A DNA stretch of 64,000 bases from Thermoplasmata archaeon (GCA_028864975.1 JAGWLG010000002.1:125481-189480), one strand, 5' to 3'; counted from the stretch's first letter, positions 46,588 to 60,546 are shown. Numbers and translations: made by a program. Notes: generated from the sequence alone by a model not told the origin.

Positions 46588-46986
46588 TCACTCCGGGAAA
46601 CTCATCCGGGCGAGAAGCTTTTCGCGGTCCGACATCGAGACCCCGAGACTCGCGAGGTTCTCCCCGACGCAAGGCCGGTCGTGCATGGCCTGGATCGTCT
46701 CTCCGCACGAGGGGCAGGAGGCCTTGCCCTCGGCCAAGCGGTTCAAGCTCTCCCGGGGGACAGAGCGTTCCTTCTTCTCCAGCTTGCGAAGGAGGGACGT
46801 CAGGGCCGCCCCCCGGTCCATGTTCGAGAACGGCACCCGCACCTGGGCGTTGCAGTTCGGACAATGCGGAAGGGCGCGACAGGTACAAGCCACGAGCTTC
46901 GCCACCTCGAACCCCTCCAAGAGGCTTACGGAGGGTTTTCGGGCCCCCCCTCTCGGGGGACGGTCCGGGGGCGGGGCACTTTCCAC
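46588..46986 (-). CDS. Small Cys-rich (zinc-binding) protein
   Basis: CTC..HCPNC..CPSC..HDRPC. Start uncertain (GTG 46986 or TTG 46920). Confidence 0.6.
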   Translation of the reverse strand: MESAPPPDRPPRGGARKPSVSLLEGFEVAKLVACTCRALPHCPNCNAQVRVPFSNMDRGAALTSLLRKLEKKERSVPRESLNRLAEGKASCPSCGETIQAMHDRPCVGENLASLGVSMSDREKLLARMSFPE

Positions 46987-46994
46987 TTCTTCGG

Positions 46995-47014
46995 TATATG
47001 AGTAATCTCATAAA
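46995..47014. promoter_or_regulatory. Divergent AT-rich promoter region (TATATG and CATAAA boxes)
   Basis: AT-rich patch between the Zn-finger gene and the surface-protein/T4SS-like operon; CATAAA lies about 31 nt upstream of ATG 47045. Confidence 0.5.
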
Positions 47015-47044
47015 CGTGGGCTTGATGGGGTCGCCGAGGAACCC

Positions 47045-50000
47045 ATGTCCGCTTCGAGAAGAAACGCCCCCAACGCCCAACTGCTGTTGCTGACCGTGCT
47101 GATGCCCTTGGCCCTGCTGGCCACCGTCCTCCTCCCCGGAGGAGGGGTCGGCTCCGGTCCGCTCGGTACCACGCCGCCGCCAACTTCGGGGACCGCTCCG
47201 CCCCAGACCCCCCATCCCGGCGCCGCTCCCCACACCATGGACGGCTCGTACGCGACCATGTCCGTCGACCCGTCGACCAGCGCGCTCGTCATGGGGGGGA
47301 CGGAGGAGCTTACGGCACAGATCTCCCCCGGAGAGGGCGTCGGGGAGGTGGGGATCTTCTCCGTTTCGTGGTCGCTCCCTTCCAACGCGCCCGGCTACCT
47401 TGGTACATCGGACACCACGACCGCTCCGTTCTATGCCTCCCCCGTCGTAACCCCGACCACGACCGTGGTCTCGGTGCAGGCCACCGGCTACGTGGTCCCC
47501 ATCATCCTCGGAGAATGGTTCACGGTCGACGCCACCGCCGCGGTCACCGTGGTGCCGCCTCTCTCCGCCTCGGCCCTCTTGCCGAACCCCGACCCCGCGG
47601 CCCCGGGAGAGTCCATTTCGCTCACGTCGGAGGTCTCGGGGGGGCTCCCGCCGTTCACCCTCTCGTTCGTGTTCGGAGACGGGAGCAGCGCAACCCTCGA
47701 TCAGTCGAACGATGGGAAGGCGACCATCTCGCACTCCTATGCCGCCGGCACGTTCTCGCCCACCGCACAGGTCGCTGATGGATTGGGCGACCACGCGGTC
47801 ACCTCCGCCTTGAGCTCGGTCGTCGTGACCGCCCATCTTGGGGCCGCGATCCTCCCCCCATCCGGCGCGGACCGTGGCACGGCCACGACCTTCCGTGCGA
47901 GCGTCGGGGGCGGAAGCGCACCCTACTCCTTCCTCTGGTCGGACTCGTGGGGGGACAGCTCCTACTCCTCCGGCGCATGGACCCTCGCGCCCTCGCGCGT
48001 TGGTCCGCTCACCGTTCAGCTCTCCGTCTCGGACGCGGACGGCCAAGTGACGGTCGCTCCGTCGGTGACCGTACAAGTGGCGGCGCCCCCTTCGGTCGCC
48101 CTCTCCTCCGCGGTGCCCGAGGCCGATGCGGGCACGCCCTTCCCCCTCCTCGTGGATGTCGAGGGAGGGACGGCGCCCTTCGAGCTCGTCTGGGACCCCG
48201 GAGAGGGCGTAGGGAGCCTCGCGACGGAGCTTCCCGCCGACGGGACCTTCGCAGAGCCCTACACGTTCTCGGTTCCCGGGTCCCTCTCCGCCAACGCCGA
48301 GGTCATCGACGCCCTCGGGATCTCGTTCAGCACCGAAGCGCAGGTCGGAACGGTGGTCGCCCCCCCTAACGTGGGTCTCAGCGCCTCCCCTGCGGTGCCC
48401 ACCCAGGGTCTACCCTTCGAGCTCACCGCCACGGTGACCGGAGGCATCGCCCCGTACAGTTGGGACTGGGTCTTCGATGGACCGGTCTCCTCCTCAAGCC
48501 CGTTCTCCGGGACCATGGGAACGGCGGGGTCGCTGGTCTGGAACGGGTCGCTCTCCGTGAGCGAAGGGCTCGAGGCGGAGCTGGAGGTCCAAGATGCCTC
48601 CGGAGGCCAGGCCTCGAGCGCGCTCGACCTCCAGGTCCTCGCTCCCCTCACCGCGAGCCTCTCGGTCCAGCCCCTACGAGGAGAGGTCGGGCAACCCCTC
48701 TCGGTCCTTGCGACGTTCACCGGGGGGGAGGGCCCCTACACGCTGACGCTGAGCGCGTCGGATGGAGAGGCGGCCACCAGCACCCCCGAGAACGCTGGGA
48801 CCGCCCTGTTCTCGCTCATTCCTCGGACCCCGGGGAACCTCACCGTCTCGCTCCGGGCGACGGACACCCTCGGGCACGTCTTCGTGAGCTCGACGATCGT
48901 GTCCATCGCCCCCGAGTTCCAAGGGCTGCTGTCGGTGAGCTCGGGCAGTGTCGACGCCGGAGGGCAGATCTCCGCGACGGTCCTGCTGCAAGGCGGCTGG
49001 GCCCCGTTCTCGGGGGTCGTCAGTACCTCCGATGGCCGGGTCTTCCCGTTCCAAGGTCCCTCCCCTTCCTTCACCCTGACCCTGGGGTTCCCCACACGAG
49101 GGTACGTCACCCTCACGGCCATGACGACCGACGCCCTAGGTTCCCCCTCGACCCGGACCGTCGAGGTCTCGGTCAATCCGGCACCGTGGGCGACGCTCGC
49201 CTGCGGCGGGGGACAGACGGACGTCGGCGCTCCGCTCGCGTTCCTTGCGCGGGCGGGCGGGGGGACGGGAGTGTTCCCCAGCGTCACCGTCTCCTATGGC
49301 GACGGGGGCTCGACCACCAGTTGGTCGTCCAGCCACCTGTACGGCAGCGTGGGGACCTTCCTCGCGAACGCGACGGTGACCGACTCGGTCGGTGGCAAGG
49401 CCTCGAGCGCTCCCGAGCTGATCTCCGTGGTACCGGATCCTCAGGCCGCCGCGGAGATGACCCAGGCGGGGGCGGACCAGGGGCTCGCCACCTCGTTCGC
49501 GAGCCAGGTCTCCTTCGGGACTCCCCCCTACTCGTACCTCTGGAACTTCGGGGATGGAGGGGTGAGCGCGCTCTCGGACCCCAGCCATGACTTCGCCCAA
49601 CCCGGGGCCTACCACGTCGCCCTGACCGTGACCGATAGTACCGGTCGTTCGTCCTCGGCTCCGGTGGTGAACGTCAGCGTCGCCGCACCCCCGGCGCTAT
49701 CGGCCTCCGCGAACCGGAGCGAGCTCGAGGTCGGGGCTAGCGGGCTCTTCCAGGCCACGGTCCTGGGCGGGGCCTCCCCCGCGCAGGTGGTCTGGACCTT
49801 CGGGGATGGGTCGGTGGCCACCGGCAGGGTCCTCAACCACACCTACACCTCTCCAGGCTCCTACGACGTTCAGGCCACCCTGACGGACGCCGCCGGAGGC
49901 ACGGCCACCGAGGACCTTGCCCTCGTTGTGGCACCGGCCCTCGCCGCGACCGGCACGTCGATCTCCCCGACCACCGGGGAGGTCGGGGTCCGGAGCCTTC

Positions 50001-52465
50001 TGACCGAGGTTCCCACGGGGGGCGTTGCGCCCTTCTACTTCCAGTGGCAAGCGGGGGGGTTCCAGGGGGGCGGACAAGGACTCTCCTCTTGGGCGGTCTT
50101 CCCGAACGCTTCGGGCCCCTTGTCGGGGACCGTGACGGTCGTGGACGCCGACGGGGCACGGAGCACCGCCGCGTTCACGGTGGAGGTGGCCGCAGCACTA
50201 TCGCTGAACCTGACCTCCGTACCGACCCCACCCGAAGCGACCCGTCCCTTCCAGCTCCTCGCCGGGGTCGCGGGAGGGGTCGCGCCGTTCACCTACTCTT
50301 GGTCGGTGCCGTTCCCCCTCAGCGACCCTGGGAACCGCTCCGCCTGGGACGCGGTGGTGCCGACGGCTGGGGCGATACCCCTCTCGCTGACCGTGGCCGA
50401 TGCCGACGGCCGCATGCTCACCTCGACGACCACCCTGAACATCGCTCCCCAGCTCTCGGTGAGCGTCGACAGCGTGGGGGTCGTCGCGGATGCGGGGGTA
50501 CCGGTCGTGGTCCGAGCCTCGGTCCTCGGTGGGATCGGCCCGGTCCATGCGACGTTCGTCACCCCCTTCGGCACGTTCCCGCTGGGGAGCAGCGTGGTCT
50601 TCCCCACTCCGGGGGTCTTCCCCGTCCAGGTGGTCGCGACCGACAGCATCGGCGCGGTCGCGGTGGCGGAGACCAACCTGAGCGTCGCTCCTCCTCCTGT
50701 CGCCTCGTTCCTTCGCGCCCTCCCTCGGGTCGCGGTCGGCGCGATGGAGAGCTGGCAGGTCTCGGTCCTCGGGGGTTCGGCGCCTTACACCATCACGTGG
50801 AGCGTTCCCGGCGTGGGGACCTCGGAAGGGACGGTGGCGAACTTCACGCTCCCCTCGTCCGGAACGTACCAGGTCGTGGCGGTGGTCCACGACGCCGCCG
50901 GTGCGGTGCTCGCTTTGCGGAGCAATGCCACAGCCCTTCCGGATGACCTCGCACTTGCCGTCAATGCGACACGGACCGAAGGGCTCGCGCCGCTACGCAC
51001 GGACCTCGTGATCTCGGCCATCGGCAATGCGACGCCGGTCGCGGTGACGGTCGAGGTCGACGGGGCCCTCACGGGCACCGTCCACGACCTCGCCGTGGCG
51101 CTCCCCTGGGTGCTTCCCCTTGCCGTCGCCCAACCCGGGATGCACACGGTCAGCGTCCGTGCGACCGATCCCTTGGGGGCTCAGGCCAATGCGACGTTCA
51201 CGGTGGGGGCTTTCGGGGCCTTGTCGGCCCCGTCGATTTCCCCGCTGCCGGCGACGGTGCGGGCCGGTTGTCCCTTGACACTGACCGCGTCAGGCTCGAT
51301 CATGAACGGGACCTGGGTCAGCGGGGAGCAGGTGGGCTGGTCCTGGTGGGGAGAGAACCTCACACAGCAGAGCGAGGGTGTGGCCACGTTCCTCTCGGAC
51401 CGGGCCGGCGCCCACACGGCCGAGGTCTCAGGAACGGTCACCGCCCCGGATGGCACCCTCCTCGAGAACCTCACCACCCCCATCCCGATCGAGGTGCATC
51501 CCGCCGAAGCGATGGCCCTCTCGGTCCTTCCGAACGCGGCCCCCGACCTGGCCGGGACCAACGCGACCGTCCTCCTGGAGGCGAACGACGCCTTCGGCAA
51601 CCTCAACACGAGCTACGCCGGGAACGTCTCGGCCAAGGAGCTCTCGGGCCCCGGGGGGTCCACAGAACTCGCCGAGGGCACCTTCGCCGCAGGTGACCTG
51701 AGCCTGACGCTCCTCTCGACGAAGGCCGGGCTCGCGCGCTACGCCCTCACGACCCCGCTCTCGGGTGGGGGCGTGCTGAACATCCCCTGGCAAGCCAACC
51801 CCTCCAGGGCGGTCCTGCGGCTGCTTTCCTGGGAGCGCATCGGTTCCTCGCTCCTGCTCAACGTGAGCGCGCTCGACGTCTACGGCAACCCGCTCTCGAA
51901 CCTCACGGTCGAGGCGAAGGTCCCCGGGGGTGCTTCGGTCCAGGGGGTCGTCCAGGGAGGGAACGTCTCGCTGCTCCTACCGGGCGCCGCCGGGGCGGCG
52001 GACCTGGAGCTCGTCGGGCCCGATGGCGCGGAGACCATGGTGGTCCTTCCCTCGGGAGGCGACCCTCCCTCGGGGACCGTGAGCTTGCTGTTGGTCGCGG
52101 TCTTCCTGGGGTCGACGCTGGCTACCGGGACCTTCATCGCCTGGAATCGCCGACGCCAGCGGGCCCGACGCGACAAGGCCCGTCGTGCCCAGGAGCCCCC
52201 GACCCTCTCCGAGGCCAAGGGGGCGATGGAGGAGATCATCGAGCATCTTCCGGGAGAGGACCGTGCTTCGTTGCTGATGCTCGCGGAGGAGCACGGGATC
52301 CCTCGGAAGGACGCCGAGGAAGCCCTCATCCTCCTCGAACAGAACCACCAGGCGACGCGGCGGGTCGACAGCGAAGGCATCGAGCGATGGGACCCTCCGG
52401 TCCCGGAGGACATCACCACCGCCGAGACCCCCGCGGACGAGACGTCCCCAAAGGAGGGAGCATGA
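47045..52465 (+). CDS. Giant PKD/Ig-repeat cell-surface protein (1806 aa), first gene of T4SS-like operon
   Basis: N-terminal hydrophobic signal; repeated PKD motifs (FVFGDG, WNFGDG, WTFGDG, GGxxPYxYxW); Big_1-like DAFGN and DVYGN motifs; C-terminal TM at 52085-52144, basic stop-transfer and a cytoplasmic tail. Confidence 0.85.
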   Translation: MSASRRNAPNAQLLLLTVLMPLALLATVLLPGGGVGSGPLGTTPPPTSGTAPPQTPHPGAAPHTMDGSYATMSVDPSTSALVMGGTEELTAQISPGEGVGEVGIFSVSWSLPSNAPGYLGTSDTTTAPFYASPVVTPTTTVVSVQATGYVVPIILGEWFTVDATAAVTVVPPLSASALLPNPDPAAPGESISLTSEVSGGLPPFTLSFVFGDGSSATLDQSNDGKATISHSYAAGTFSPTAQVADGLGDHAVTSALSSVVVTAHLGAAILPPSGADRGTATTFRASVGGGSAPYSFLWSDSWGDSSYSSGAWTLAPSRVGPLTVQLSVSDADGQVTVAPSVTVQVAAPPSVALSSAVPEADAGTPFPLLVDVEGGTAPFELVWDPGEGVGSLATELPADGTFAEPYTFSVPGSLSANAEVIDALGISFSTEAQVGTVVAPPNVGLSASPAVPTQGLPFELTATVTGGIAPYSWDWVFDGPVSSSSPFSGTMGTAGSLVWNGSLSVSEGLEAELEVQDASGGQASSALDLQVLAPLTASLSVQPLRGEVGQPLSVLATFTGGEGPYTLTLSASDGEAATSTPENAGTALFSLIPRTPGNLTVSLRATDTLGHVFVSSTIVSIAPEFQGLLSVSSGSVDAGGQISATVLLQGGWAPFSGVVSTSDGRVFPFQGPSPSFTLTLGFPTRGYVTLTAMTTDALGSPSTRTVEVSVNPAPWATLACGGGQTDVGAPLAFLARAGGGTGVFPSVTVSYGDGGSTTSWSSSHLYGSVGTFLANATVTDSVGGKASSAPELISVVPDPQAAAEMTQAGADQGLATSFASQVSFGTPPYSYLWNFGDGGVSALSDPSHDFAQPGAYHVALTVTDSTGRSSSAPVVNVSVAAPPALSASANRSELEVGASGLFQATVLGGASPAQVVWTFGDGSVATGRVLNHTYTSPGSYDVQATLTDAAGGTATEDLALVVAPALAATGTSISPTTGEVGVRSLLTEVPTGGVAPFYFQWQAGGFQGGGQGLSSWAVFPNASGPLSGTVTVVDADGARSTAAFTVEVAAALSLNLTSVPTPPEATRPFQLLAGVAGGVAPFTYSWSVPFPLSDPGNRSAWDAVVPTAGAIPLSLTVADADGRMLTSTTTLNIAPQLSVSVDSVGVVADAGVPVVVRASVLGGIGPVHATFVTPFGTFPLGSSVVFPTPGVFPVQVVATDSIGAVAVAETNLSVAPPPVASFLRALPRVAVGAMESWQVSVLGGSAPYTITWSVPGVGTSEGTVANFTLPSSGTYQVVAVVHDAAGAVLALRSNATALPDDLALAVNATRTEGLAPLRTDLVISAIGNATPVAVTVEVDGALTGTVHDLAVALPWVLPLAVAQPGMHTVSVRATDPLGAQANATFTVGAFGALSAPSISPLPATVRAGCPLTLTASGSIMNGTWVSGEQVGWSWWGENLTQQSEGVATFLSDRAGAHTAEVSGTVTAPDGTLLENLTTPIPIEVHPAEAMALSVLPNAAPDLAGTNATVLLEANDAFGNLNTSYAGNVSAKELSGPGGSTELAEGTFAAGDLSLTLLSTKAGLARYALTTPLSGGGVLNIPWQANPSRAVLRLLSWERIGSSLLLNVSALDVYGNPLSNLTVEAKVPGGASVQGVVQGGNVSLLLPGAAGAADLELVGPDGAETMVVLPSGGDPPSGTVSLLLVAVFLGSTLATGTFIAWNRRRQRARRDKARRAQEPPTLSEAKGAMEEIIEHLPGEDRASLLMLAEEHGIPRKDAEEALILLEQNHQATRRVDSEGIERWDPPVPEDITTAETPADETSPKEGA

Positions 52466-52929
52466 GGACACGGGCAGCGCACGGGTCCCCCCGCGCTTGG
52501 GGGGGCCCTCCCGCGGGCTTCCTCGTCGGCCTACCGGTCCTCGTGCTCCTGGGCGCCCTGTGGCTCGTTGTGCCGCCGGGGTCGTCGAGCCCGGCTCACG
52601 CGACCGCCGCCTTCCCAGCGGAGGCCCTCCAGGATGAGGCCTCTTCTGTCGGCGGGCATGGACGAGTCGCGATCTCGGCGGCGACGAACGCCACAGGGAA
52701 CCTCACGGCCTCGTTGAACCGCGCGGTCCTCCTCGTGGGGATCGCCGCCAGCGGGATCATCACCCTGGTCTGGTCGCGCGTGGCCATCTCTTGGTTCTCC
52801 CATGACCCGACCAAGAAGGTCCAGGCGAAGGAGCGGGCGCGCGATGCGCTCGTGGGCAGCATGGTCCTCCTTGCGGCCGTGAGCGGACTCGCGTGGGGGC
52901 TCGCCCACTGGGTCCTGACGGGGACGTGA
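52462..52929 (+). CDS. VirB2/TrbC-like (T4SS) pilin
   Basis: Signal peptide ending SPAHA, then two hydrophobic helices separated by SHDPTKKVQAKERARDALVG, the typical T4SS-pilin loop. ATGA overlap with the upstream gene. Confidence 0.75.
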   Translation: MRTRAAHGSPRAWGGPPAGFLVGLPVLVLLGALWLVVPPGSSSPAHATAAFPAEALQDEASSVGGHGRVAISAATNATGNLTASLNRAVLLVGIAASGIITLVWSRVAISWFSHDPTKKVQAKERARDALVGSMVLLAAVSGLAWGLAHWVLTGT

Positions 52930-52980
52930 GGTCTCCCCTCCCGTCCCGCTCCCTCACGTGCCCCCCCCAGGAGACGACCC

Positions 52981-54276
52981 ATGGACTACGGACCGATCGT
53001 CAAGGCCATCCTCTTCGCCATCTTCGGGACCTTGACCGCCGCGGTCACAGTCGTGACGGGGCCCACCTACGACAACCTCTTCGTCCACGAGATGGACCCC
53101 ACGAACGCGTTCGCCGTCTGGCAGGGCGGGAACGTGTTCGCCCAGGCGTCGCTCTTCAGCAACACCCTGCTCGTCGAACTGGTCGACCCGCTCGCGGTCC
53201 TGGTCATCCTGGCCGTGGGGTTCCTCTACCTCGCCCGCGCGGTGCATCCCTCTCCCCGCCTGGCAGGGCTCGCCCCGAAGCTCATCGTGGGGATCCTCCT
53301 CGCGAACCTGGTGCTGCCGATCACCTCCGCCCTCTGGCAGCTCGCGGCGGGGATCTACCCACTCTTCTACGACTACGGCGGAGGGGCCTGGAGGACCTAT
53401 GCGAACCTCGTCGGACCGGGGGCGATCAACCTGTCGTGGGACAACGGGGTCCTGGCCTTCATCGTCTCCTGGGTGCTCTTCAGCATGGTCCTGCTCCTCT
53501 CCTTCCTCATCGCGTTCCGAGGAGCGCTTGTCGCGGTCCTTTTGGTCTTGCTTCCGGTGCTGACGCTGCTCTGGCCCATTCCGGGGGCTTCCTCGGTGGC
53601 CCGAAAGGCCTGGGTCCTGTTCGCCGAGATGGCCGTGCTGCCCTGCTTCGTCGTCGTCCCGCTGGTCCTGGCCGTGGGGTCGACCAGCGTGTTGCTCACG
53701 CTCGGGCTCTTCGCGGCGGCCATCGCCATGCCCCAGTTGCTCTCGGTTTCGGGCTCAGCGATATCGCACGCCGGTTTCCCGAATGCCAGCTTCGCGGTCG
53801 GGAGCGGGTTGATCGAGGGTGCCGGATCCTCGCAAGGGACGGCGAGCGGATTGCTGGCCCGTTCCTCGTCCTCCTTCCGGCAGGCGGCCGCACGCCCCGA
53901 GGACCCCGCCTCCAGCCAGGGTGGGGAGACGTCAGCGTCCTCGGCCCATTCCTCTCGAACCCCCCGACGGTCCGCTTCGACCCCTCGGGGTAGCGGGAGC
54001 ACGTTCGGAAGCGGCGGGCGGGGTGCCCTCGCCGGGCCGGCCGGGCTGGTCCTCTGGGGCATGCAGGAGGGGCTGGGGAGATTGGGGCGAGAGCTGGGAG
54101 CACGCGTCGCCAAGGCCCGGGGCGATACGACAGGGACGAGCCGGAACGGCGATCATGGGCCGGAGCCCTCCAGGCCCACCCCCGCCGTCACGAAGGTCCC
54201 CCATCTCGTGCCCTCCTTCCAGCAACAACTGGGCGACCGAGCGCGGTCCTCGCCTCGGAGGGCGAGCCGGGCATGA
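52981..54276 (+). CDS. VirB6/TrbL-like polytopic membrane protein
   Basis: About 7-8 TM segments; ANLVLPITSALWQL and FRGALVAVLLVLLPVLTLLWPIP..W patterns; Ser/Gly/Ala-rich cytoplasmic tail. Confidence 0.7.
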   Translation: MDYGPIVKAILFAIFGTLTAAVTVVTGPTYDNLFVHEMDPTNAFAVWQGGNVFAQASLFSNTLLVELVDPLAVLVILAVGFLYLARAVHPSPRLAGLAPKLIVGILLANLVLPITSALWQLAAGIYPLFYDYGGGAWRTYANLVGPGAINLSWDNGVLAFIVSWVLFSMVLLLSFLIAFRGALVAVLLVLLPVLTLLWPIPGASSVARKAWVLFAEMAVLPCFVVVPLVLAVGSTSVLLTLGLFAAAIAMPQLLSVSGSAISHAGFPNASFAVGSGLIEGAGSSQGTASGLLARSSSSFRQAAARPEDPASSQGGETSASSAHSSRTPRRSASTPRGSGSTFGSGGRGALAGPAGLVLWGMQEGLGRLGRELGARVAKARGDTTGTSRNGDHGPEPSRPTPAVTKVPHLVPSFQQQLGDRARSSPRRASRA

Positions 54277-55037
54277 ACGAGGACACGGTCCTCCTTCCCG
54301 AGCGGCTCGGCCGTCGGATGTCGGTCGGGCCGTTCCAGGACCCTCGTGACTTCCTGAGGTTCCTCCTGGCGTGCGCCGTAGGGGTGCTTCCCGCAACGCT
54401 CCTCGGGACCTGGGCTTGGCTGCCGTTCGTGGGGCTCGGCGCCCTCCTCACCCTGCTCCGGTTCGAAGAGGAGTCGCTGTGGGTCCTGGTGGACCGACGG
54501 CTCCGGTTCCATGGGAGGTCCTACCGCGACGCGATCGCGCGCTTCCTCCACACCGGCTCCCACCCGGAGGTGTCGCTTCGCGCGGGCCCTTCCCGGAGCA
54601 TGGTGCCACCGCCGGAGGTGTTCGAGCACGACCCTTGGAGCATCTCGGGCCGAACGTCCGGGGAGCTCCTGGAGGAGTCGCGCTCGGTGGTCCGCGACCT
54701 CGCTCTCCTGCACCGAGAGGCGTTCCTCGTTCGTTCCCCTTCGACCTGGAATCTCGCAGGGTTCGTACCGCCCACGGAAGGGCCTCGGGGGAGCGAGGAG
54801 GCGCTGAGGAAGGCCTACATCGATCTCCTAAGGAGCTCGGTCGCGGGGAAGCACCGCGCACGGCTCTTCCTGCTCCTCCCTTCTCGTAGGACGGGCGGAG
54901 CGCCCGATGACGCGGAACGGCGGGCCCGTGAGGTCCTGACGCGAGCGGGGTGGGAGCGACGAGCAGCTCTGCCTCCGGTCCCGCTGACCACCGACCCGCT
55001 CGACCCCGCTCGAGCCGCGCGGAGGACCGGGTCGTGA
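54273..55037 (+). CDS. PrgI/VirB3-like protein with C-terminal soluble extension
   Basis: LPERLGRRMSVGPFQDPRDF plus two TMs plus SLWVLVDRRLRF, as in PrgI. ATGA overlap. Confidence 0.6.
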   Translation: MNEDTVLLPERLGRRMSVGPFQDPRDFLRFLLACAVGVLPATLLGTWAWLPFVGLGALLTLLRFEEESLWVLVDRRLRFHGRSYRDAIARFLHTGSHPEVSLRAGPSRSMVPPPEVFEHDPWSISGRTSGELLEESRSVVRDLALLHREAFLVRSPSTWNLAGFVPPTEGPRGSEEALRKAYIDLLRSSVAGKHRARLFLLLPSRRTGGAPDDAERRAREVLTRAGWERRAALPPVPLTTDPLDPARAARRTGS

Positions 55038-55477
55038 AGCGATACGCGACCCGACCTGCCCCGCCGGTCTCCGCCTTGGGGGGGTTGTCCCTGGCCGACC
55101 TCGAACGGTTCTCGGTCGCGGTGGCGCTCCTCTCCGGGGCATTCGCTCTCGAGGGGCTCGCCCGCGGTGCGACCCCTTCGCTGGTGGTCCTCTGCTGGAC
55201 CCTCTTCCTGCTCGACCCCCAACGTCGCGGGTGGGGGCGGTACTTCGGCGCCGCTTCGCGTGGGCTCACGACGGGGCTCCGGGCCTGGGGCCCCAGTCTT
55301 GCCCTGTGCGCGGGGGGGTGGACCATGGAGCTGCTCCCGGGGGTGCCTCTGGGGGAAGGGACGCGAGAGCTCCTGCTCGCCTTCGTTTCCTGCGGGCTCG
55401 CCTACCTGTTGCTCCCTGGCGACCCGAACGACGCAAGGACCCTGCGCGGCCTCCCGTGGCCCGGCGAGGTCCCATGA
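55034..55477 (+). CDS. Small membrane protein (147 aa) within T4SS-like operon
   Basis: GTGA and ATGA overlaps on both sides; 3-4 hydrophobic segments. Confidence 0.6.
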   Translation: MKRYATRPAPPVSALGGLSLADLERFSVAVALLSGAFALEGLARGATPSLVVLCWTLFLLDPQRRGWGRYFGAASRGLTTGLRAWGPSLALCAGGWTMELLPGVPLGEGTRELLLAFVSCGLAYLLLPGDPNDARTLRGLPWPGEVP

Positions 55478-57192
55478 CCTCTACGGCTCCCGGTTCGCGC
55501 GGGCCGGCGCGTCGCGGCCTCTTCGAGGTCGGGCGGCGCGGAGTGCGTTCCGGGCTCCGCTGGAGCTCCCCCCTGATCGTCCGCAGGTTCCCCCAGGAGG
55601 TGGCGGCCCCCGCGTTGGGCCCTCTGGGGAGCAGCGACCTCCGCGTCCGTACGACCGTTCGCCTACGCTGCGAGGAGCAGGGCCCGGCGTTGCACCGGGT
55701 ACAGGAGGACCGTGCCCATGTGGAGGCGGAGCTGGCGACCCTAGGTTCCCGGGCCGACCCCCGCTCAGCGGTCCTTCGGCAGGAAGCCGCGGGCCTCGAG
55801 CATTTCGAGGAAGCCCTCGCGTCTCGCCGGACGCGGCTATGGGATGTGGTCGTCGCCTTCGAAGGGTGGGGTCGCTCCGAACAGGAAGCCGTCCGGGCCG
55901 TCTCGCCGCTCCGTGAAGCTCTCCATGCTCGAGGGTTCCGCTTCCACGCCACCGACTTCCAGGCGGAGGCGCTGTGCGTGGCCCCACGCCCCCTCGGACC
56001 GGCGCCGAGCGAGCTCTTCCATGCGCTCCCCGAAGAGGGCGTGGCTGCGCTACTTCCTCTCTGGGAGGACCGGCTTGAGGAACGCGGGGGCGTGCTGGTG
56101 GGGCTCCACGCGATGCATGGGACGCCGATCTTCTTGGACCGGTTCCAGCACCCGAGCCATTCTTCGGCCATCTTTGGGGAGACCGGGAGCGGCAAGAGCT
56201 ACGCGAGCGCGCTCGGTTGGATCCGCCTTCGCTGGTTCCGGCCCGACCTTTCGGTCTTCGTCCTGGACCCTCTCGGGGGATTGGCTCACGTGGTCTCCGA
56301 GCTGGGGGGCTCGCTCTTTCGGGCGGGCGATGGGGCCCTCGCCCTGAACCCGTTGGACCCCGCGACGACGGGCGGGGACGTACGGGTCAAGGCCGCCCAG
56401 GTGGGGGTCATGTTCCGGGCGCTCTTCCCGTCGCTCGCGGACGAGGAGGTCGCGCTCCTCGATACCACGCTCTCCAAGCTCTACGACTCGGGCGGAACGA
56501 AGGTCCCGCTGCTACGGGACCTCGTCGGGCGCCTGGAAGGCCTGCAGCCACGCCCGGCCCGCCTCCTCACGCTGCTCGAGCGAGCGACGCGGGGGTCGTT
56601 GCGAGGCCTGGACCGGCCGACGAACCTGGACCTCTCGTCACGGCTCTTGGGCTTCGACCTCTCCGCGGTCACGGCCGAAGAGCTTCCGTTCTTCCTGACC
56701 CTGCTCCTCGACCTGGTCTATGGTGAGGTACGTCGCCGCCCCGGACCCAAGATCGTGGTCCTCGACGAGGCGCACTACCTGGCACGCGCTCCCGCGACCG
56801 CGGCGTTCCTCGACCATCTGGTGCGGCACGTCCGGCACTTCGAAGCCGGGATCGAGCTCCTGAGCCAAGACCCCGAGGATTTCCTAAGGGAAGAGACGGG
56901 CCGGACGATCCTCCAGAACTTGGACTCGGTCTTGTTGTTTCGGCTCAAGGACGGTGGAGAGGCCATCGCCCCTTTGCTCGGGCTCCACGAAGGGGAGCTC
57001 GACTTCCTTCGTCAAGCGGCCCTGCCGGGCTCCGCGGGATACTCCCAGGGGATCCTGCGGACCGCAGCGCTCCACCTTCCGCTCGCGGTCATCTCCTCGG
57101 AAGCGGAGGACCGGCTGCTCCGCAGGGCATTCGCTCGGGAAAGGACCTCGAGCGGACCCAGGTCCGCGGGTCGGCCCCTCACTCCGGAGTGA
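55474..57192 (+). CDS. virB4: VirB4-like secretion/conjugation ATPase (572 aa)
   Basis: PIFLDRF..HSAIFGETGSGKS (Walker A), FVLDPLG, LNPLD, GFDLS, IVVLDEAH (Walker B), RHVRHF..LLSQDPEDF. ATG 55474 in an ATGA overlap. Confidence 0.85.
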   Translation: MTSTAPGSRGPARRGLFEVGRRGVRSGLRWSSPLIVRRFPQEVAAPALGPLGSSDLRVRTTVRLRCEEQGPALHRVQEDRAHVEAELATLGSRADPRSAVLRQEAAGLEHFEEALASRRTRLWDVVVAFEGWGRSEQEAVRAVSPLREALHARGFRFHATDFQAEALCVAPRPLGPAPSELFHALPEEGVAALLPLWEDRLEERGGVLVGLHAMHGTPIFLDRFQHPSHSSAIFGETGSGKSYASALGWIRLRWFRPDLSVFVLDPLGGLAHVVSELGGSLFRAGDGALALNPLDPATTGGDVRVKAAQVGVMFRALFPSLADEEVALLDTTLSKLYDSGGTKVPLLRDLVGRLEGLQPRPARLLTLLERATRGSLRGLDRPTNLDLSSRLLGFDLSAVTAEELPFFLTLLLDLVYGEVRRRPGPKIVVLDEAHYLARAPATAAFLDHLVRHVRHFEAGIELLSQDPEDFLREETGRTILQNLDSVLLFRLKDGGEAIAPLLGLHEGELDFLRQAALPGSAGYSQGILRTAALHLPLAVISSEAEDRLLRRAFARERTSSGPRSAGRPLTPE

Positions 57193-58714
57193 AGGAGAGC
57201 CCAATGGTGGCGACCGTGAGGTAGATCCCGGCGTCCACGAAGGGGATGGAAACCTCGCAGGAGTTGTATCCGTCGTAGGAGACGAAGCAGTTATGGATGT
57301 AGGGGCGGGATGTAACGACCGAGGAGTATGACTTCGCCCATGTCGACCAGGCCCCTGCGAAATTCGTTGTGACGTTAAGATACTGTGGATTGGTCAAAAT
57401 GTAGTTCCCGTTCCCGAGGTTCGTCGGGCTCCCCGTAGGGAAGAAGACCGAGTTCTCCGAGACCAGCCAAGTCTTCACCCCGACGACCCCCTGGCCCTGC
57501 TCAACGGTCAGGTTCTGGATCTGGAAATCGACGATCGTGAGGTTCGCATCGAATCCAGTTCCTCCGCTGTTGGACGGGAAGACGCTCAAGAGCGGGCCGG
57601 AAAGCATCGTCGAGTCGTTGATCGGGTTCCCGACGATGAGCCCTCCTTCCTCGTAGTTGACCGAGACCACAGGACTGTACCGGTTGTTGAGCCGTGCCGA
57701 CAAACCCCCGTAGTTGCCGGCGTTCAGGTTGTTCACGTAGTTCAGGTACCAGGCACAACTGAGCGCCTTAGAGATGTTCTGGAAGGCCACCTGTCCGTGG
57801 CAGCCGGCCTTGCACGTTGGAGGTCGGAGGTTGTAAGCGGAGTTCCAGCCGTTAGCGTTGAACCAAGTGATGTTCTGGACGTTCTTGTTCCCCGAGGTGA
57901 AAGTGACGTTGTACGTGTCGCTGTTCGAGAGGTTCTGGAGCGGGCACCGGATTGTCCCGTTCGTGAATCCGATGAAGGTTGTGTTTGCCTGCTTCCCGCA
58001 GGAGCCGCCTCCGCCAATCGTGGCATTGTAGGAATTGCGCTGACCGAAAATGTAGATGTTCGGGGCGCCGCAACCTCCCTTATACAGGAAGTTGAAGAAA
58101 TTATAGTCGCCCTCCACGATGATCTGGATGAATTGGAAGTTCGAGCTCGGCATCGTCAAGTTGATGACGTTGTGGCTCCCGGTGAAGTTGGCGTAGTAGC
58201 AATTGCCCGCTCCATTCAGGTTGATGTTCCAGCCCGAGTTTGTCCCGGAGAAGTTGTAGGAGAACGCTGGGCTGCACTTCGATTGGCTAGGCTGGTTGCA
58301 CGATCCCCCTGTGATGATGGGACAGAGGTTCCCCTGTCCCCAGCTCGGAGGAAAGTACCCGATCTGACCGAACGACATCCCGAAGGTGGCGTTCTCAGCC
58401 CTCGCTGTAGGGGGAGACAGGATACCACCGGATGCGGGTCCGAACGGAGGCACGCTGCCGCTCCCCAAGGTGATTGGTGTCGTCATGACGACGTGCTGGT
58501 TGGGGTGCGCGATCTCGGCGTAGATGTCGCCCTGGAGCTCGCGGAACTCGTTCTCGACCTGGAGGGTGTGCTGGTACTCGGCCGCTTCCATCTGCGCGGG
58601 GAACTGGACCGCGAGGTAGCTCGCCAGCATGATCGCGACGAGGAGGATCGTGAACATGGTGCCTACCGCGCTTGCGACTCCACGTCGGGAGCTCTCGATC
58701 CTTCGGCGGATCAT
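57179..58714 (-). CDS. Archaeal type IV pilin-like protein (DUF7289-like) with Asn/Cys-rich beta-solenoid insert
   Basis: Class III signal RRG/VASAVGTMFTILLVAIMLASYL, then PAQMEAAEYQHTLQVENEF; many N-x-S/T sequons. ATG 58714. Confidence 0.7.
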   Translation of the reverse strand: MIRRRIESSRRGVASAVGTMFTILLVAIMLASYLAVQFPAQMEAAEYQHTLQVENEFRELQGDIYAEIAHPNQHVVMTTPITLGSGSVPPFGPASGGILSPPTARAENATFGMSFGQIGYFPPSWGQGNLCPIITGGSCNQPSQSKCSPAFSYNFSGTNSGWNINLNGAGNCYYANFTGSHNVINLTMPSSNFQFIQIIVEGDYNFFNFLYKGGCGAPNIYIFGQRNSYNATIGGGGSCGKQANTTFIGFTNGTIRCPLQNLSNSDTYNVTFTSGNKNVQNITWFNANGWNSAYNLRPPTCKAGCHGQVAFQNISKALSCAWYLNYVNNLNAGNYGGLSARLNNRYSPVVSVNYEEGGLIVGNPINDSTMLSGPLLSVFPSNSGGTGFDANLTIVDFQIQNLTVEQGQGVVGVKTWLVSENSVFFPTGSPTNLGNGNYILTNPQYLNVTTNFAGAWSTWAKSYSSVVTSRPYIHNCFVSYDGYNSCEVSIPFVDAGIYLTVATIGLSFTPE

Positions 58715-59049
58715 CCGCGACGAGGTCCGGTTCAAACGCACGGCCACCTCAGCGTCACCCCCGCTGAGTGACCTGACCTCCGGTGGATAGGCCCTCGAGG
58801 ACGACCCCCCGATCCGATGGCCGCTCCGTCTGGCGTCGAGCATGTCTCCTGTCCGTCGCAGGGAGCCCGCAAAACGGCCTACGGGGTTCCCGCTAAGAGT
58901 AGGTACCTTTCCACCGCTATTTGAAACGAGCGAGCGGCCTCTGTACGGATTCCCTGCGCCTTTGGGGGAGTCGGCTCTCCCGTTCTCTCCCTCCCTCGGC
59001 TATTTGGGCATGCGCCTCCCTCCCGGTCCCGCAGAGAGCCCTCGAACCC

Positions 59050-60546
59050 ATGGAGGACGACTACGCCGTCCTCGGACTCCGTCCGAGCGCATCGCCCGGA
59101 GAGGTCCGGGCGGCCTACCGTCGGCTCGCGAGACGCTACCACCCGGACGCGCACCACGCCGAGGGTCCGAAGGCCGCCGCTTCCAACCGCGCACGGTTCG
59201 AGGAGGTCACCGAGGCCTATCTGCGGATCAAGGAGGGGCACCCCCGTCGCGCCCCGGCTCCGAGCTCCTCCGAACCCCGGACGCGTCGGGCCCCGTCCCC
59301 ACCGCCCCGCACCTCCCCCATCCCCTCCCCGCCCGCCCCAGAAACGCGGGTCTTCCGTCGGCTGCCCCTGGACCCGACCATCCCGTTCGACTGGGCGGGG
59401 TGGGGGGGGAAGGAGGGGGCGCACGCCTCCCTGGGGGACGCGTTCGCCCGGGGCAGCCCGTTCGTCGCGCTCAAGGTCGAGCGCGAGGAGAACGCGGGGG
59501 ACGTCAACTCGTTCCTCGACCTTACGGTCCGGGAGTCGCTCTTGGGAGCGGTCAAACGCGTGGTCCTGCTCGACGAGCAGCAGTGCCGCGCATGCGGAGG
59601 GAGTGGCAAAGGTGGAGAGTCCCGCCAACTCCCTTGTGCTGCCTGCGGAGGGACGGGACGCCGGGAAGAGAGCCGGCTCGGGGGTGCTTGGAAGAGCATC
59701 GACCGGTGCACTCATTGCGGAGGCACGGGGAAGGTGACCCGGGAGGAGTGCGACGTCTGCGGAGGGAAGGGCCGAGAGTCCCGCCACGACATGGTGATGG
59801 TCGAGATCCCCCCGGGGTCACCCCCCGGGCGACGGCTACGTCTCCAGGGATTGGGCCGGTGGGATGCTGCCCGCAATCAGCGGGGAGACTACTACCTCAC
59901 CCTCGCGCTCGCCGAAGGGCCCGAGGCCTGGCACGAGGCAGGGGCGCAGCACATGGCCTTCCCGGTCCCCCAGACGATCCTCTCGCGCGGTGGCCAGGTC
60001 GTCGTCCCAGGACGGAACGGTCCTCTTCTCGTCCCCGTGGCCGCGGGGACCACCGACGGGGAGACGGTCCGTCTTCCCCATGCCGGCCCCCGCCTCCCTC
60101 CGGATGGCGCTTCGGGGGCGTTGGTCCTCCATCTGAGGGCGGTGGAGGACCCCGGGGACCTGCCGGGGATGTCGGTCACCATCCCCGCCTTCCTGCGGAA
60201 GGCGGTCCCGACGCAGCCGGGGGAGCGGATGGTCGCGGCCTGGTCGGCCTACCTGGACTCTCCGAAGAACCCGGGATTCCTCATCGTGACCAGTCAGAAG
60301 CTGGTCTTCCTCAGCAAGGAGAACCTCGAGGGGGTAGGGATGGAGTGGTTCGCTCCGGTGAGCCGGCTCGCCCTCCAGCCCATCGAGGTCCCTCCGAACG
60401 TCCCCCGCGACCGCACCGCGCTCTGGGCCGTGACCATTGCGGGCCGTCGGGTCTTCCTGCGCCGGACGCTCGCCCAGATCGAGAAGATCCACGCGATGCT
60501 CGAGGAGCTCCGTCGTGAGAGCTCCTACGGGCCCTCCGGGGCCTAG
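59050..60546 (+). CDS. dnaJ: DnaJ-like co-chaperone (J domain, 4x CxxCxGxG, CTD) fused to a C-terminal PH-like domain
   Basis: DDYAVLGL..AYRRLARRYHPD; CRACGGSG, CAACGGTG, CTHCGGTG, CDVCGGKG; extra C-terminal GFLIVTSQKLVF domain. ATG 59050. Confidence 0.8.
   Translation: MEDDYAVLGLRPSASPGEVRAAYRRLARRYHPDAHHAEGPKAAASNRARFEEVTEAYLRIKEGHPRRAPAPSSSEPRTRRAPSPPPRTSPIPSPPAPETRVFRRLPLDPTIPFDWAGWGGKEGAHASLGDAFARGSPFVALKVEREENAGDVNSFLDLTVRESLLGAVKRVVLLDEQQCRACGGSGKGGESRQLPCAACGGTGRREESRLGGAWKSIDRCTHCGGTGKVTREECDVCGGKGRESRHDMVMVEIPPGSPPGRRLRLQGLGRWDAARNQRGDYYLTLALAEGPEAWHEAGAQHMAFPVPQTILSRGGQVVVPGRNGPLLVPVAAGTTDGETVRLPHAGPRLPPDGASGALVLHLRAVEDPGDLPGMSVTIPAFLRKAVPTQPGERMVAAWSAYLDSPKNPGFLIVTSQKLVFLSKENLEGVGMEWFAPVSRLALQPIEVPPNVPRDRTALWAVTIAGRRVFLRRTLAQIEKIHAMLEELRRESSYGPSGA

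Follow-up and report, generated by a model that had tools for sequence, protein, structure and literature searches.

A six-gene operon of conjugation-like genes

The DNA analysed here, a 64,000-nucleotide stretch (hereafter the window), forms the end of a 189-kb contig in the metagenome-assembled genome (MAG) of a Thermoplasmata archaeon (3.6 Mb, 67% GC, 89.6% complete). The source archaeon is uncultured, and its habitat is soil and mine drainage. Positions 47045-57192 of the window contain six open reading frames (ORFs), all on the + strand, which we designated G1 to G6. An earlier note, made from the sequence, had read them as an operon of conjugation-like genes domesticated by the host, possibly for DNA exchange. 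The gene structure was borne out: a frame switch in the codon-position GC plot coincided with each proposed gene start, and the four 4-nt overlaps named in the note were all found, reading ATGA at 52462, 54273 and 55474 and GTGA at 55034. G2, which overlaps G1 by ATGA, is preceded by GGAGG, and a gap of 51 nt separates G2 from G3. The composition was host-like, as had been proposed, with an operon GC of 0.69-0.72 compared with 0.674 for the genome, which is inside the range of the window.

A VirB3-VirB4 motor divided between G4 and G6

G6 (572 aa; 55474-57192, + strand) is a predicted VirB4 ATPase that carries the RecA-like motor domain and the rest of the N-terminal domain. It has a Walker A motif (GETGSGKS) and a Walker B motif (VVLDEAH), and residues G235, T237, G238, G240, K241, D431, E432, A433 and H434 were invariant in 12 orthologs. 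G6 matched the NCBIfam models conju_CD1110 VirB4 (6.1e-41, 140 bits) and VirB4_CagE (1.5e-18); its match to CedD was 2.8e-5 (23 bits; cut-off 600), and the CedB model NF041017 gave no match up to E 1. All of these scores were under the NCBIfam equivalog cut-offs, indicating that G6 is a divergent VirB4 member. When a profile of 12 orthologs was compared with the PDB, the best match was the VirB4 C-terminal domain 4AG5 (1.6e-33), with HerA at 1e-5 to 2.4e-4. As judged by these matches, G6 is a VirB4-type ATPase, as the note had it, and not HerA or CedB. A search for plasmid VirB4 with G6 returned sequences that were less than 30% identical at best, mostly from haloarchaeal plasmids.

G4 (254 aa; 54273-55037, + strand) combines a predicted VirB3/PrgI-like transmembrane (TM) hairpin with the first part of a VirB4 N-terminal domain. 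The genome encodes, on another contig (C118), a fused 875-aa VirB3-VirB4 of the type found in integrative and conjugative elements (ICEs). A profile of 12 G4 orthologs aligned over 236 columns to residues 10-290 of this fusion (hhalign probability 94.8, E 5e-8), and G6 aligned to residues 312-844. The G4 profile also aligned to a PrgI-like paralog on contig C72 (hhalign probability 95.2). The CD1110 profile was covered from 19 to 722 by the ICE-type fusion and only from 204 to 721 by G6. Since G4 aligns to the N-terminus of the fusion and G6 to the remainder, and since G6 lacks the first CD1110 positions, the alignments indicate that G4 and G6 make up one VirB3-VirB4, in which VirB4 is split with G5 between the halves. 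The earlier description of G4 as PrgI-like was right for its hairpin and incomplete for the rest of the protein.

G5 (147 aa; 55034-55477, + strand) is a predicted small integral membrane protein located between the VirB4 halves. Its third-position GC was 0.85 in its own frame, and it had no match in Pfam or NCBIfam. Most of the 34 related loci examined, and also the DHVE2-type loci, had positional homologs that were 101-135 aa long and showed the hydrophobic pattern of G5; the small membrane protein already recognised in the note is thus kept at that position.

Predicted pilin, membrane platform and adhesin

G2 (155 aa; 52462-52929, + strand) resembles a VirB2-like pilin precursor, with a signal peptide and a hydrophobic hairpin. 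A signal-peptide-like helix is followed by a variable linker, a conserved N-glycosylation sequon and two long hydrophobic helices, which are linked by a four-residue loop (FSHD) and the second of which opens with a basic stretch. An AlphaFold2 (AF2) model placed the hairpin at residues 76-111 and 116-153, with a predicted local distance difference test score (pLDDT) of about 90. The C-terminal 75 aa were 55-76% identical across genera, making this the best conserved small-protein segment in the operon. Pfam T4SS_pilin was the top family in 14/41 G2 orthologs, at scores below the threshold (best 5.4e-5), and distant homologs from three lineages likewise gave sub-threshold T4SS_pilin matches (3e-4, 1e-3), one of them also matching CagC (3.7e-3). 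Structure searches with Foldseek and VIA-align returned generic alpha-hairpins, and the A. pernix pilus 8dfu was at Foldseek rank 9 (E 1.9, TM score 0.46) amid unrelated hairpins; the fold does not discriminate the family. Neither the G2 nor the G3 profile matched any PDB sequence up to E 10.

G3 (431 aa; 52981-54276, + strand) is a polytopic membrane protein. Its residues 1-265 have a predicted VirB6-like fold, and its C-terminal tail, rich in Ser, Arg and Pro, is disordered. An AF2 model made from 40 orthologs had a pLDDT above 90 at residues 1-265. In a Foldseek search of the whole PDB, the top four matches were TrwI/VirB6 chains of the R388 type IV secretion system (T4SS; E 0.018, probability 1.0). 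VIA-align gave Z scores of 11.2, 10.6 and 10.2 to TrwI (214-224 residues aligned, root-mean-square deviation 5.6-5.7) and 10.0 to DotA, the next, unrelated protein scoring 7.6. The fold thus matches TrwI/VirB6 above unrelated proteins, which agrees with the VirB6-like label in the note, and by its model G3 is a candidate membrane platform or channel.

G1 (1806 aa; 47045-52465, + strand) is a surface protein with PKD/Ig repeats (Pfam PKD 8.6e-40, PKD_4 6.4e-40), which agrees with the giant PKD adhesin of the note. An N-terminal signal-like helix precedes many repeats, and a single C-terminal TM helix, a basic stretch and a cytoplasmic tail of about 60 aa follow them. A PKD protein of 534-1852 aa was found at this position in nearly all related loci in which the position was assembled, and the TM helix, basic stretch and tail were kept across genera, including a genome of 30% GC. 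The tail (52226-52390, residues about 1728-1782) has the conserved pattern LAEEEGI...LD.L...G.V and looks winged-helix-like from its sequence; it matched nothing significant in Pfam. G1 is a candidate adhesin or partner-recognition subunit.

The operon is inherited vertically

A G6 ortholog was present in every genome (24/24) sampled across seven genera of the GTDB family to which the source genome belongs. Identity was 68-71% for members of the same genus, 52-58% for three other genera and 40-45% for the remaining three. Among the family species genomes, 161/179 had an ortholog, almost always as a single copy. This count includes three unpublished genomes (G171-G173); without them it is 158/176, and no claim hinges on them. 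The family genomes come from soils, peat and acid sulfate soils, and one of them is Candidatus Lutacidiplasmatales.

The order PKD protein-G2-G3-G4-G5-G6 and its spacing were identical in about 55 loci, so that synteny was fixed across related MAGs, and a patchy, ICE-like distribution was not seen. The trpS/ssb/lrp/truA synteny was shared by the genus of the window, genus g2 and one additional MAG, and in most other species truA lay about 4.4 kb downstream on the opposite strand. The G6 sequences of the family formed one clade (SH-aLRT 100) that subdivided by genus. G6 identity followed CarB identity with a Pearson coefficient of 0.82 (n = 23; points not independent).

Values of dN/dS (NG86) for the six genes were 0.26-0.50 between the window and a congener and 0.14-0.25 against a second genus, with dS near saturation, compared with 0.11 for trpS; G1 had 0.43, G5 0.14-0.37 and G6 0.14-0.26. 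All six genes are under purifying selection.

These data bear on whether the operon is an ordinary ICE remnant in decay that has lost its coupling protein, relaxase and integrase. The split VirB4 and the missing coupling protein would suit a remnant, as would the conjugative nature of the closest families (CD1110-type) and the activity of related ICEs in the lineage. A decaying element would not be expected to look like this one, however: its six frames are intact and under purifying selection, its catalytic motifs are invariant, it is a near-universal single copy in a conserved chromosomal context, and VirB4 is split in the same way, around the same gene, in the majority of the loci examined as well as in distant lineages. 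Conservation and selection therefore contradict the remnant reading, which we regard as very improbable, and we favour a functional machine of T4SS origin.

Mobile conjugation clusters lie elsewhere in the genome

The contig, including the window and its operon, gave no type IV coupling protein (T4CP), and a tRNA search of the 64-kb window found none. The genome gave seven tyrosine recombinase matches, none on the 189-kb contig and all on other contigs. Relaxases of PF03432 and PF02486, the two families searched for, were not found in the genome (89.6% complete); recognisable relaxases are in any case absent from archaeal elements (PMC9905601). The earlier note had recognised no relaxase, coupling protein, integrase, Rep, tRNA or att repeat. 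This held for coupling proteins and integrases on the contig and for tRNAs in the window, but the genome does have conjugation genes, in the form of ICE-type T4SSs with coupling proteins on other contigs.

Three more VirB4 genes, 30-33% identical to G6, lie on the short contigs C118 (L005), C52 (L006) and C39 (L007), the last of which is probably adjoined by C72 (L008). Each is followed by a coupling protein of 1146-1172 aa (TrwB_AAD_bind, TraG-D_C), one of which matches the CD1115 VirD4 family. A VirB6-like paralog precedes VirB4 on C118 and C72, where the upstream side was assembled, and weak G3 paralogs adjoin the ICE-type VirB4 genes. In the VirB4 tree these genes formed a separate clade, in which members from different genera differed by branch lengths of only 0.02-0.05. 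Such near-identity across genera reads as a signature of recent horizontal spread and suggests that the clusters on C118, C52, C39 and C72 are actively spreading archaeal conjugative elements in the family. With their coupling proteins, fused VirB4 and near-identity across genera, they provide an internal contrast to the focal operon.

The component identities, the near-universal single copy, the fixed order, the purifying selection, the absence of a T4CP or integrase on the contig and of tRNAs in the window, and the contrast with the T4CP-bearing mobile clusters together support the conclusion that the operon is vertically inherited and domesticated in the family. The analysis thus supports the domestication proposed in the earlier note.

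The presence of these clusters raises another explanation, that the operon has partners in trans, either T4CPs supplied by ICEs in the same cell or an ATPase encoded elsewhere on the chromosome, and exports chromosomal or ICE DNA by conjugation. Candidate partners are at hand: other contigs of the genome encode three to four T4CPs, HerA/FtsK-superfamily ATPases occur in most family genomes and are convergent neighbours of the operon in two, and Cuniculiplasma has an unlinked TraG/VirD4-family ATPase (PMC5155288). The ICE clusters, however, bring their own VirB6 and VirB4, and full-length T4CP orthologs were found in only about 15/74 high-quality family genomes, compared with about 90% for the operon. 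The widespread ATPase matches HerA, CedD and TraD at the P-loop level only, is also present in genomes that have no operon, and lies here on another contig beside a DNA methyltransferase gene. Because most carriers have no ICE coupling protein, dependence in trans is improbable.

Some further genes of these classes were noted. One of the ICE-type clusters also encodes an oligonucleotide-binding (OB)-fold protein, and the contigs break inside the clusters. A fourth T4CP-like gene (1192 aa; C46 69088-72666, L108:9088-12666) lies near an IS605-type TnpB gene and a gene for a PKD/PQQ-repeat protein, and VirB4 is not beside it. Five tyrosine recombinase genes were found on C73 (5102-13984 and 35573-36043), four of them within 9 kb, which perhaps represent an island rich in integrases or several integrated elements nested together. 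The HerA/FtsK-superfamily ATPases found in most family genomes are 800-1250 aa long. In two species a widespread one of 880-1260 aa lies directly beside the operon in convergent orientation (L110:5954-8593, L111:3778-6705), and the copy of the source genome, which adjoins the methyltransferase gene, is at C115:77926-81705 (L132:3926-7705). This ATPase possibly acts in defence. Widespread weak matches to the ICE T4CP query, which proved to be such HerA/FtsK-superfamily ATPases, were considered as a conserved unlinked T4CP and rejected, the similarity being at the P-loop level only and the matches occurring also in genomes that have no operon.

Related modules in other Thermoplasmata

Across 151 genomes from 27 families of the class, scores of the focal type were restricted to this family. 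VirB4 genes with a shorter frame were found in 7/8 genomes of family f10, 2/2 of f21, 1/3 of f15, 1/14 of f20 and 1/19 of f17; no VirB4 gene was found in f6 (0/18) or f8 (0/16). In f10 and f21 the neighbouring genes agreed by order and sizes.

Homology of the neighbours was borne out in four places. A sister-family genome of 30% GC (L031) had all six genes. A single-contig genome (G197) had genes of 422, 246, 136 and 566 aa that are homologous to, or positioned as, G3 to G6, plus a G2-like hairpin. In a complete Thermoplasmata genome (G305), a 96-aa pilin, a 353-aa VirB6-like protein, a 254-aa G4-like protein and a 540-aa VirB4 were encoded, with homology to G2, G3 and G6; this cluster has no G5 and no adjacent PKD adhesin. 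Vent contigs of DHVE2 and of genomes labelled 'WOR-3' had core genes of 386, 262, 144 and 615 aa.

One of the latter (L080 4731-13287) belongs to a MAG labelled candidate division WOR-3 bacterium. It carries an archaeal split-VirB4 module whose VirB4 was sister to the DHVE2 copies, and it is either a mis-binned archaeal contig or a case of inter-domain transfer.

Promoter region and flanking genes

The sole non-coding gap ahead of G1 (46987..47044, + strand) contains a patch rich in A and T, in which a TATA-like GGTATATGAG lies some 45 nt upstream of the first codon of G1, and we take the gap from its sequence as a putative promoter and 5' leader. On its other side, the divergent gene at 46588-46986 (- strand) encodes a 132-aa protein with two zinc-ribbon-like CxxC pairs; a copy 74% identical is in the same place in a congener. 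It could be a regulator of the operon.

The 5' flank contains trpS and genes for an Ssb-like OB protein, Lrp, truA and carB. On the 3' side the order is a convergent pilin-like gene, dnaJ (58921-60546), two response regulators and a histidine kinase. Of the flanks given in the earlier note, trpS/ssb were as described, while dnaJ is not the immediate neighbour, the pilin-like gene lying between. A predicted gene on the + strand at 58842-60518 (P0008) was rejected as an off-frame artefact; the true gene there is dnaJ in a different frame.

The pilin-like gene (554 aa; 57179-58843, - strand) converges on G6 and shares 14 nt with the end of that gene, stop codon included. Its product has an archaeal type IV pilin-like N-terminus, with a basic stretch running into a hydrophobic helix, is rich in Asn and Cys with many NxS/T sequons, and had no match in Pfam or NCBIfam. 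At the first two codon positions its GC is as low as 0.48. A congener has a copy in place (64% identity, L021), and other genera do not have it there. In those genera, a seventh same-strand gene (165-190 aa, with no family match) comes right after VirB4 (L028:15725-16294, L029:15709-16224, L110:5496-6044); in the genus of the window it is absent there and the pilin-like gene occupies its position.

Proposed function of the operon

Our preferred reading is that the operon encodes a chromosomal, vertically inherited, minimal T4SS-derived pilus machine that serves the host, most likely for contact-dependent DNA exchange (import). We give this reading as a whole a probability of roughly 0.55. That the operon is a domesticated T4SS-derived machine we hold with high confidence; that its cargo is DNA, and that the DNA moves inward, is argued from analogy and has close to an even chance, if perhaps slightly less.

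A T4SS inner-membrane core consists of a motor (VirB3-VirB4), a platform (VirB6) and a pilin (VirB2), and the operon parts match these, with an adhesin in addition. By homology with solved bacterial T4SSs and with the Ced and Ted systems, G4 and G6 would reconstitute a VirB3-VirB4 motor, which would dock on the VirB6-like platform G3 through its VirB3-like hairpin. The motor would pull the signal-peptide-processed G2 pilin out of the membrane, and the pilin would polymerise into a conjugative-type pilus; we infer that the operon products assemble a pilus in this manner. G1, anchored by its TM helix, would provide contact with a cell or partner, and G5 would be an accessory membrane subunit. 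The machine appears to serve the host and not a mobile element because it encodes neither a coupling protein nor an integrase, gave no relaxase of the two families searched for, and has become a fixture of the lineage. DNA import is preferred because Ced and Ted are the only studied archaeal analogues, and they are likewise without an operon-encoded relaxase and coupling protein (PMC9905601, PMC11868833). By the same analogy, the operon is a candidate third archaeal system for cell-to-cell DNA exchange beside Ced and Ted.

A more far-reaching version can be put forward only tentatively, with the odds clearly against it. The operon would then be a third, Thermoplasmatota-wide DNA-exchange machine with an origin separate from those of Ced and Ted, in which the PKD adhesin senses the partner and signals through its winged-helix-like tail to the split VirB3-VirB4 motor, thus linking recognition directly to the assembly of the pilus and the uptake of DNA.

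Alternatively, the domesticated pilus machine might carry no DNA. It would then make an adhesive or bridging pilus for surface attachment, biofilm, or cell-cell or syntrophic contact, or deliver protein. A coupling protein is the usual receptor for a DNA substrate, and the conserved neighbourhood contains neither a T4CP nor a DNA-processing gene. The PKD adhesin is the first and largest conserved gene and is translationally coupled to the pilin. The parts also match those of a Patescibacteria system that its authors judged to be co-opted for non-conjugative roles (PMC12102498). On the other side, the sole two studied chromosomal T4SS derivatives of archaea are both tied to DNA exchange, shown for Ced and proposed for Ted, and neither has an operon-encoded T4CP or relaxase (PMC9905601, PMC11868833). 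Moreover, archaea already adhere by type IV pili, and one pilin-like gene (57179-58843) adjoins the operon. We regard a machine without DNA cargo as a serious alternative, though a less likely one, and contact-dependent DNA import as the better account of the operon.

Several observations weigh against this account. On the functional side, no DNA-handling genes were found in the operon or its conserved neighbourhood, including the HerA, ParA and Rad50 genes of Ted loci. The sequencing runs that matched operon DNA were DNA runs from mine-drainage and soil metagenomes only, and none was RNA. For the T4SS pilin of the earlier note, the architecture and the AF2 hairpin fit, while the T4SS_pilin matches were sub-threshold and the fold search was non-specific, so that the predicted identity of G2 stands on its architecture and those Pfam matches. 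The Z scores of 10-11 for G3 are moderate among helical bundles.

The pattern of inheritance also has exceptions. No G6 match was found in 18/179 family genomes, five of them at least 90% complete, and the operon is therefore dispensable. Ssb adjacency is confined to three lineages, and genus g3 is an outlier from the CarB ranking. The G6 copy of the 30%-GC sister-family genome clustered with DHVE2, outside the focal clade (support 90), which is possibly a compositional artefact, all three being GC-poor, or an ancient lateral transfer.

Comparison with known systems

The genome paper of Cuniculiplasma divulgatum (2016) lists a cluster as 'type IV secretion components' with no interpretation, comprising arCOG04034 VirB4, arCOG05369 multipass and arCOG05340 membrane proteins (PMC5155288); this cluster probably belongs to the same module family. 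The Lutacidiplasmatales genome paper is silent on secretion, pili and conjugation (PMC9287336). A literature search, incomplete in coverage, found no paper that gives the operon a Ced/Ted-like reading. The statement in the earlier note that no description existed in this lineage thus holds for that reading only and is too broad for the genes, given the apparent Cuniculiplasma listing.

Domesticated conjugation machines have so far been described in two crenarchaeal groups only, those of Ced and Ted. If the reading is true, a vertically inherited equivalent in Thermoplasmata would show that archaea have repeatedly captured T4SS parts to serve the host, and it could explain how acidophilic Thermoplasmata populations exchange genes, as has been inferred for them. 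The Thermoplasmata concerned are abundant archaea of soil, peat, mine drainage and vents, and many are wall-less. The source genome, with domesticated and mobile versions side by side, would provide a natural experiment. The module also occurs in complete genomes, apparently of cultured Thermoplasmata, which would make the more far-reaching version directly testable.

The authors of the Ted paper stated that the domestication of conjugation machines had not been reported elsewhere (PMC9905601). Of the systems described, Ted and the Patescibacteria T4SS come closest to the focal operon. Ted (Thermoproteales; TedC pilin, VirB6-like TedA, VirB4-like TedB) resembles it in being chromosomal and lineage-wide, in combining a VirB2-like pilin that has a signal peptide, for which G2 is the candidate here, with a VirB6-like protein and a true VirB4-type ATPase, and in having no integrase or recognisable relaxase (PMC9905601). 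The likeness is one of published description, the sequences of TedA, TedB and TedC lying outside the comparison. Ted belongs to another phylum, and its loci have HerA, ParA and Rad50, none of which is linked to the focal operon. Unlike Ted, the focal operon has a VirB4 split in two, whose N-terminal half carries the VirB3-like hairpin and whose halves are separated by a small membrane gene, begins with a PKD adhesin that has a cytoplasmic tail, and holds all its genes in one tightly coupled operon.

Ced (Sulfolobales and Desulfurococcales; CedA, CedA1, CedA2, CedB, CedD and CedE) is likewise domesticated and consists of a pilin, a VirB6-like channel and an ATPase (PMC11868833). In both systems two polypeptides share the role of the VirB4 N-terminal domain, namely CedB and CedD in Ced and G4 and G6 in the focal operon. 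The Ced ATPases, however, are of the HerA clade, and its ATPase places the focal operon outside Ced. The pilins of Ced are described as unprocessed, in contrast to the predicted signal peptide of G2, and for aggregation Ced depends on a separate apparatus, the Ups type IV pili.

The relaxase-less chromosomal T4SS of Patescibacteria has a PF18895-type VirB2-like pilin, PrgI/VirB3, VirB6 and an MPF-FATA-type VirB4. These parts correspond to those of the focal operon, where the pilin is a candidate, and like the operon the system is near-universal in its lineage (PMC12102498). It differs in being bacterial and in that many members keep a T4CP; a split or fusion of VirB3 and VirB4 is not reported there. 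In our VirB4 tree, with small sampling, two Saccharibacteria sequences grouped with Firmicutes (support 98), apart from the focal clade (support 100).

Common ancestry links the focal operon to the ICE-type clusters of the same genome and to MPF-FATA (CD1110/CD1115) systems, with which it shares a VirB6-like protein, a VirB3-like hairpin and a CD1110-type VirB4. The ICE type differs in its fused 875-aa VirB3-VirB4, its adjacent T4CP of about 1150 aa, its short, repeat-broken contigs and its sporadic occurrence. Two features of the focal operon, a VirB4 split around a membrane subunit and an adhesin with a cytoplasmic tail, are unreported for Ced, Ted and the Patescibacteria system.

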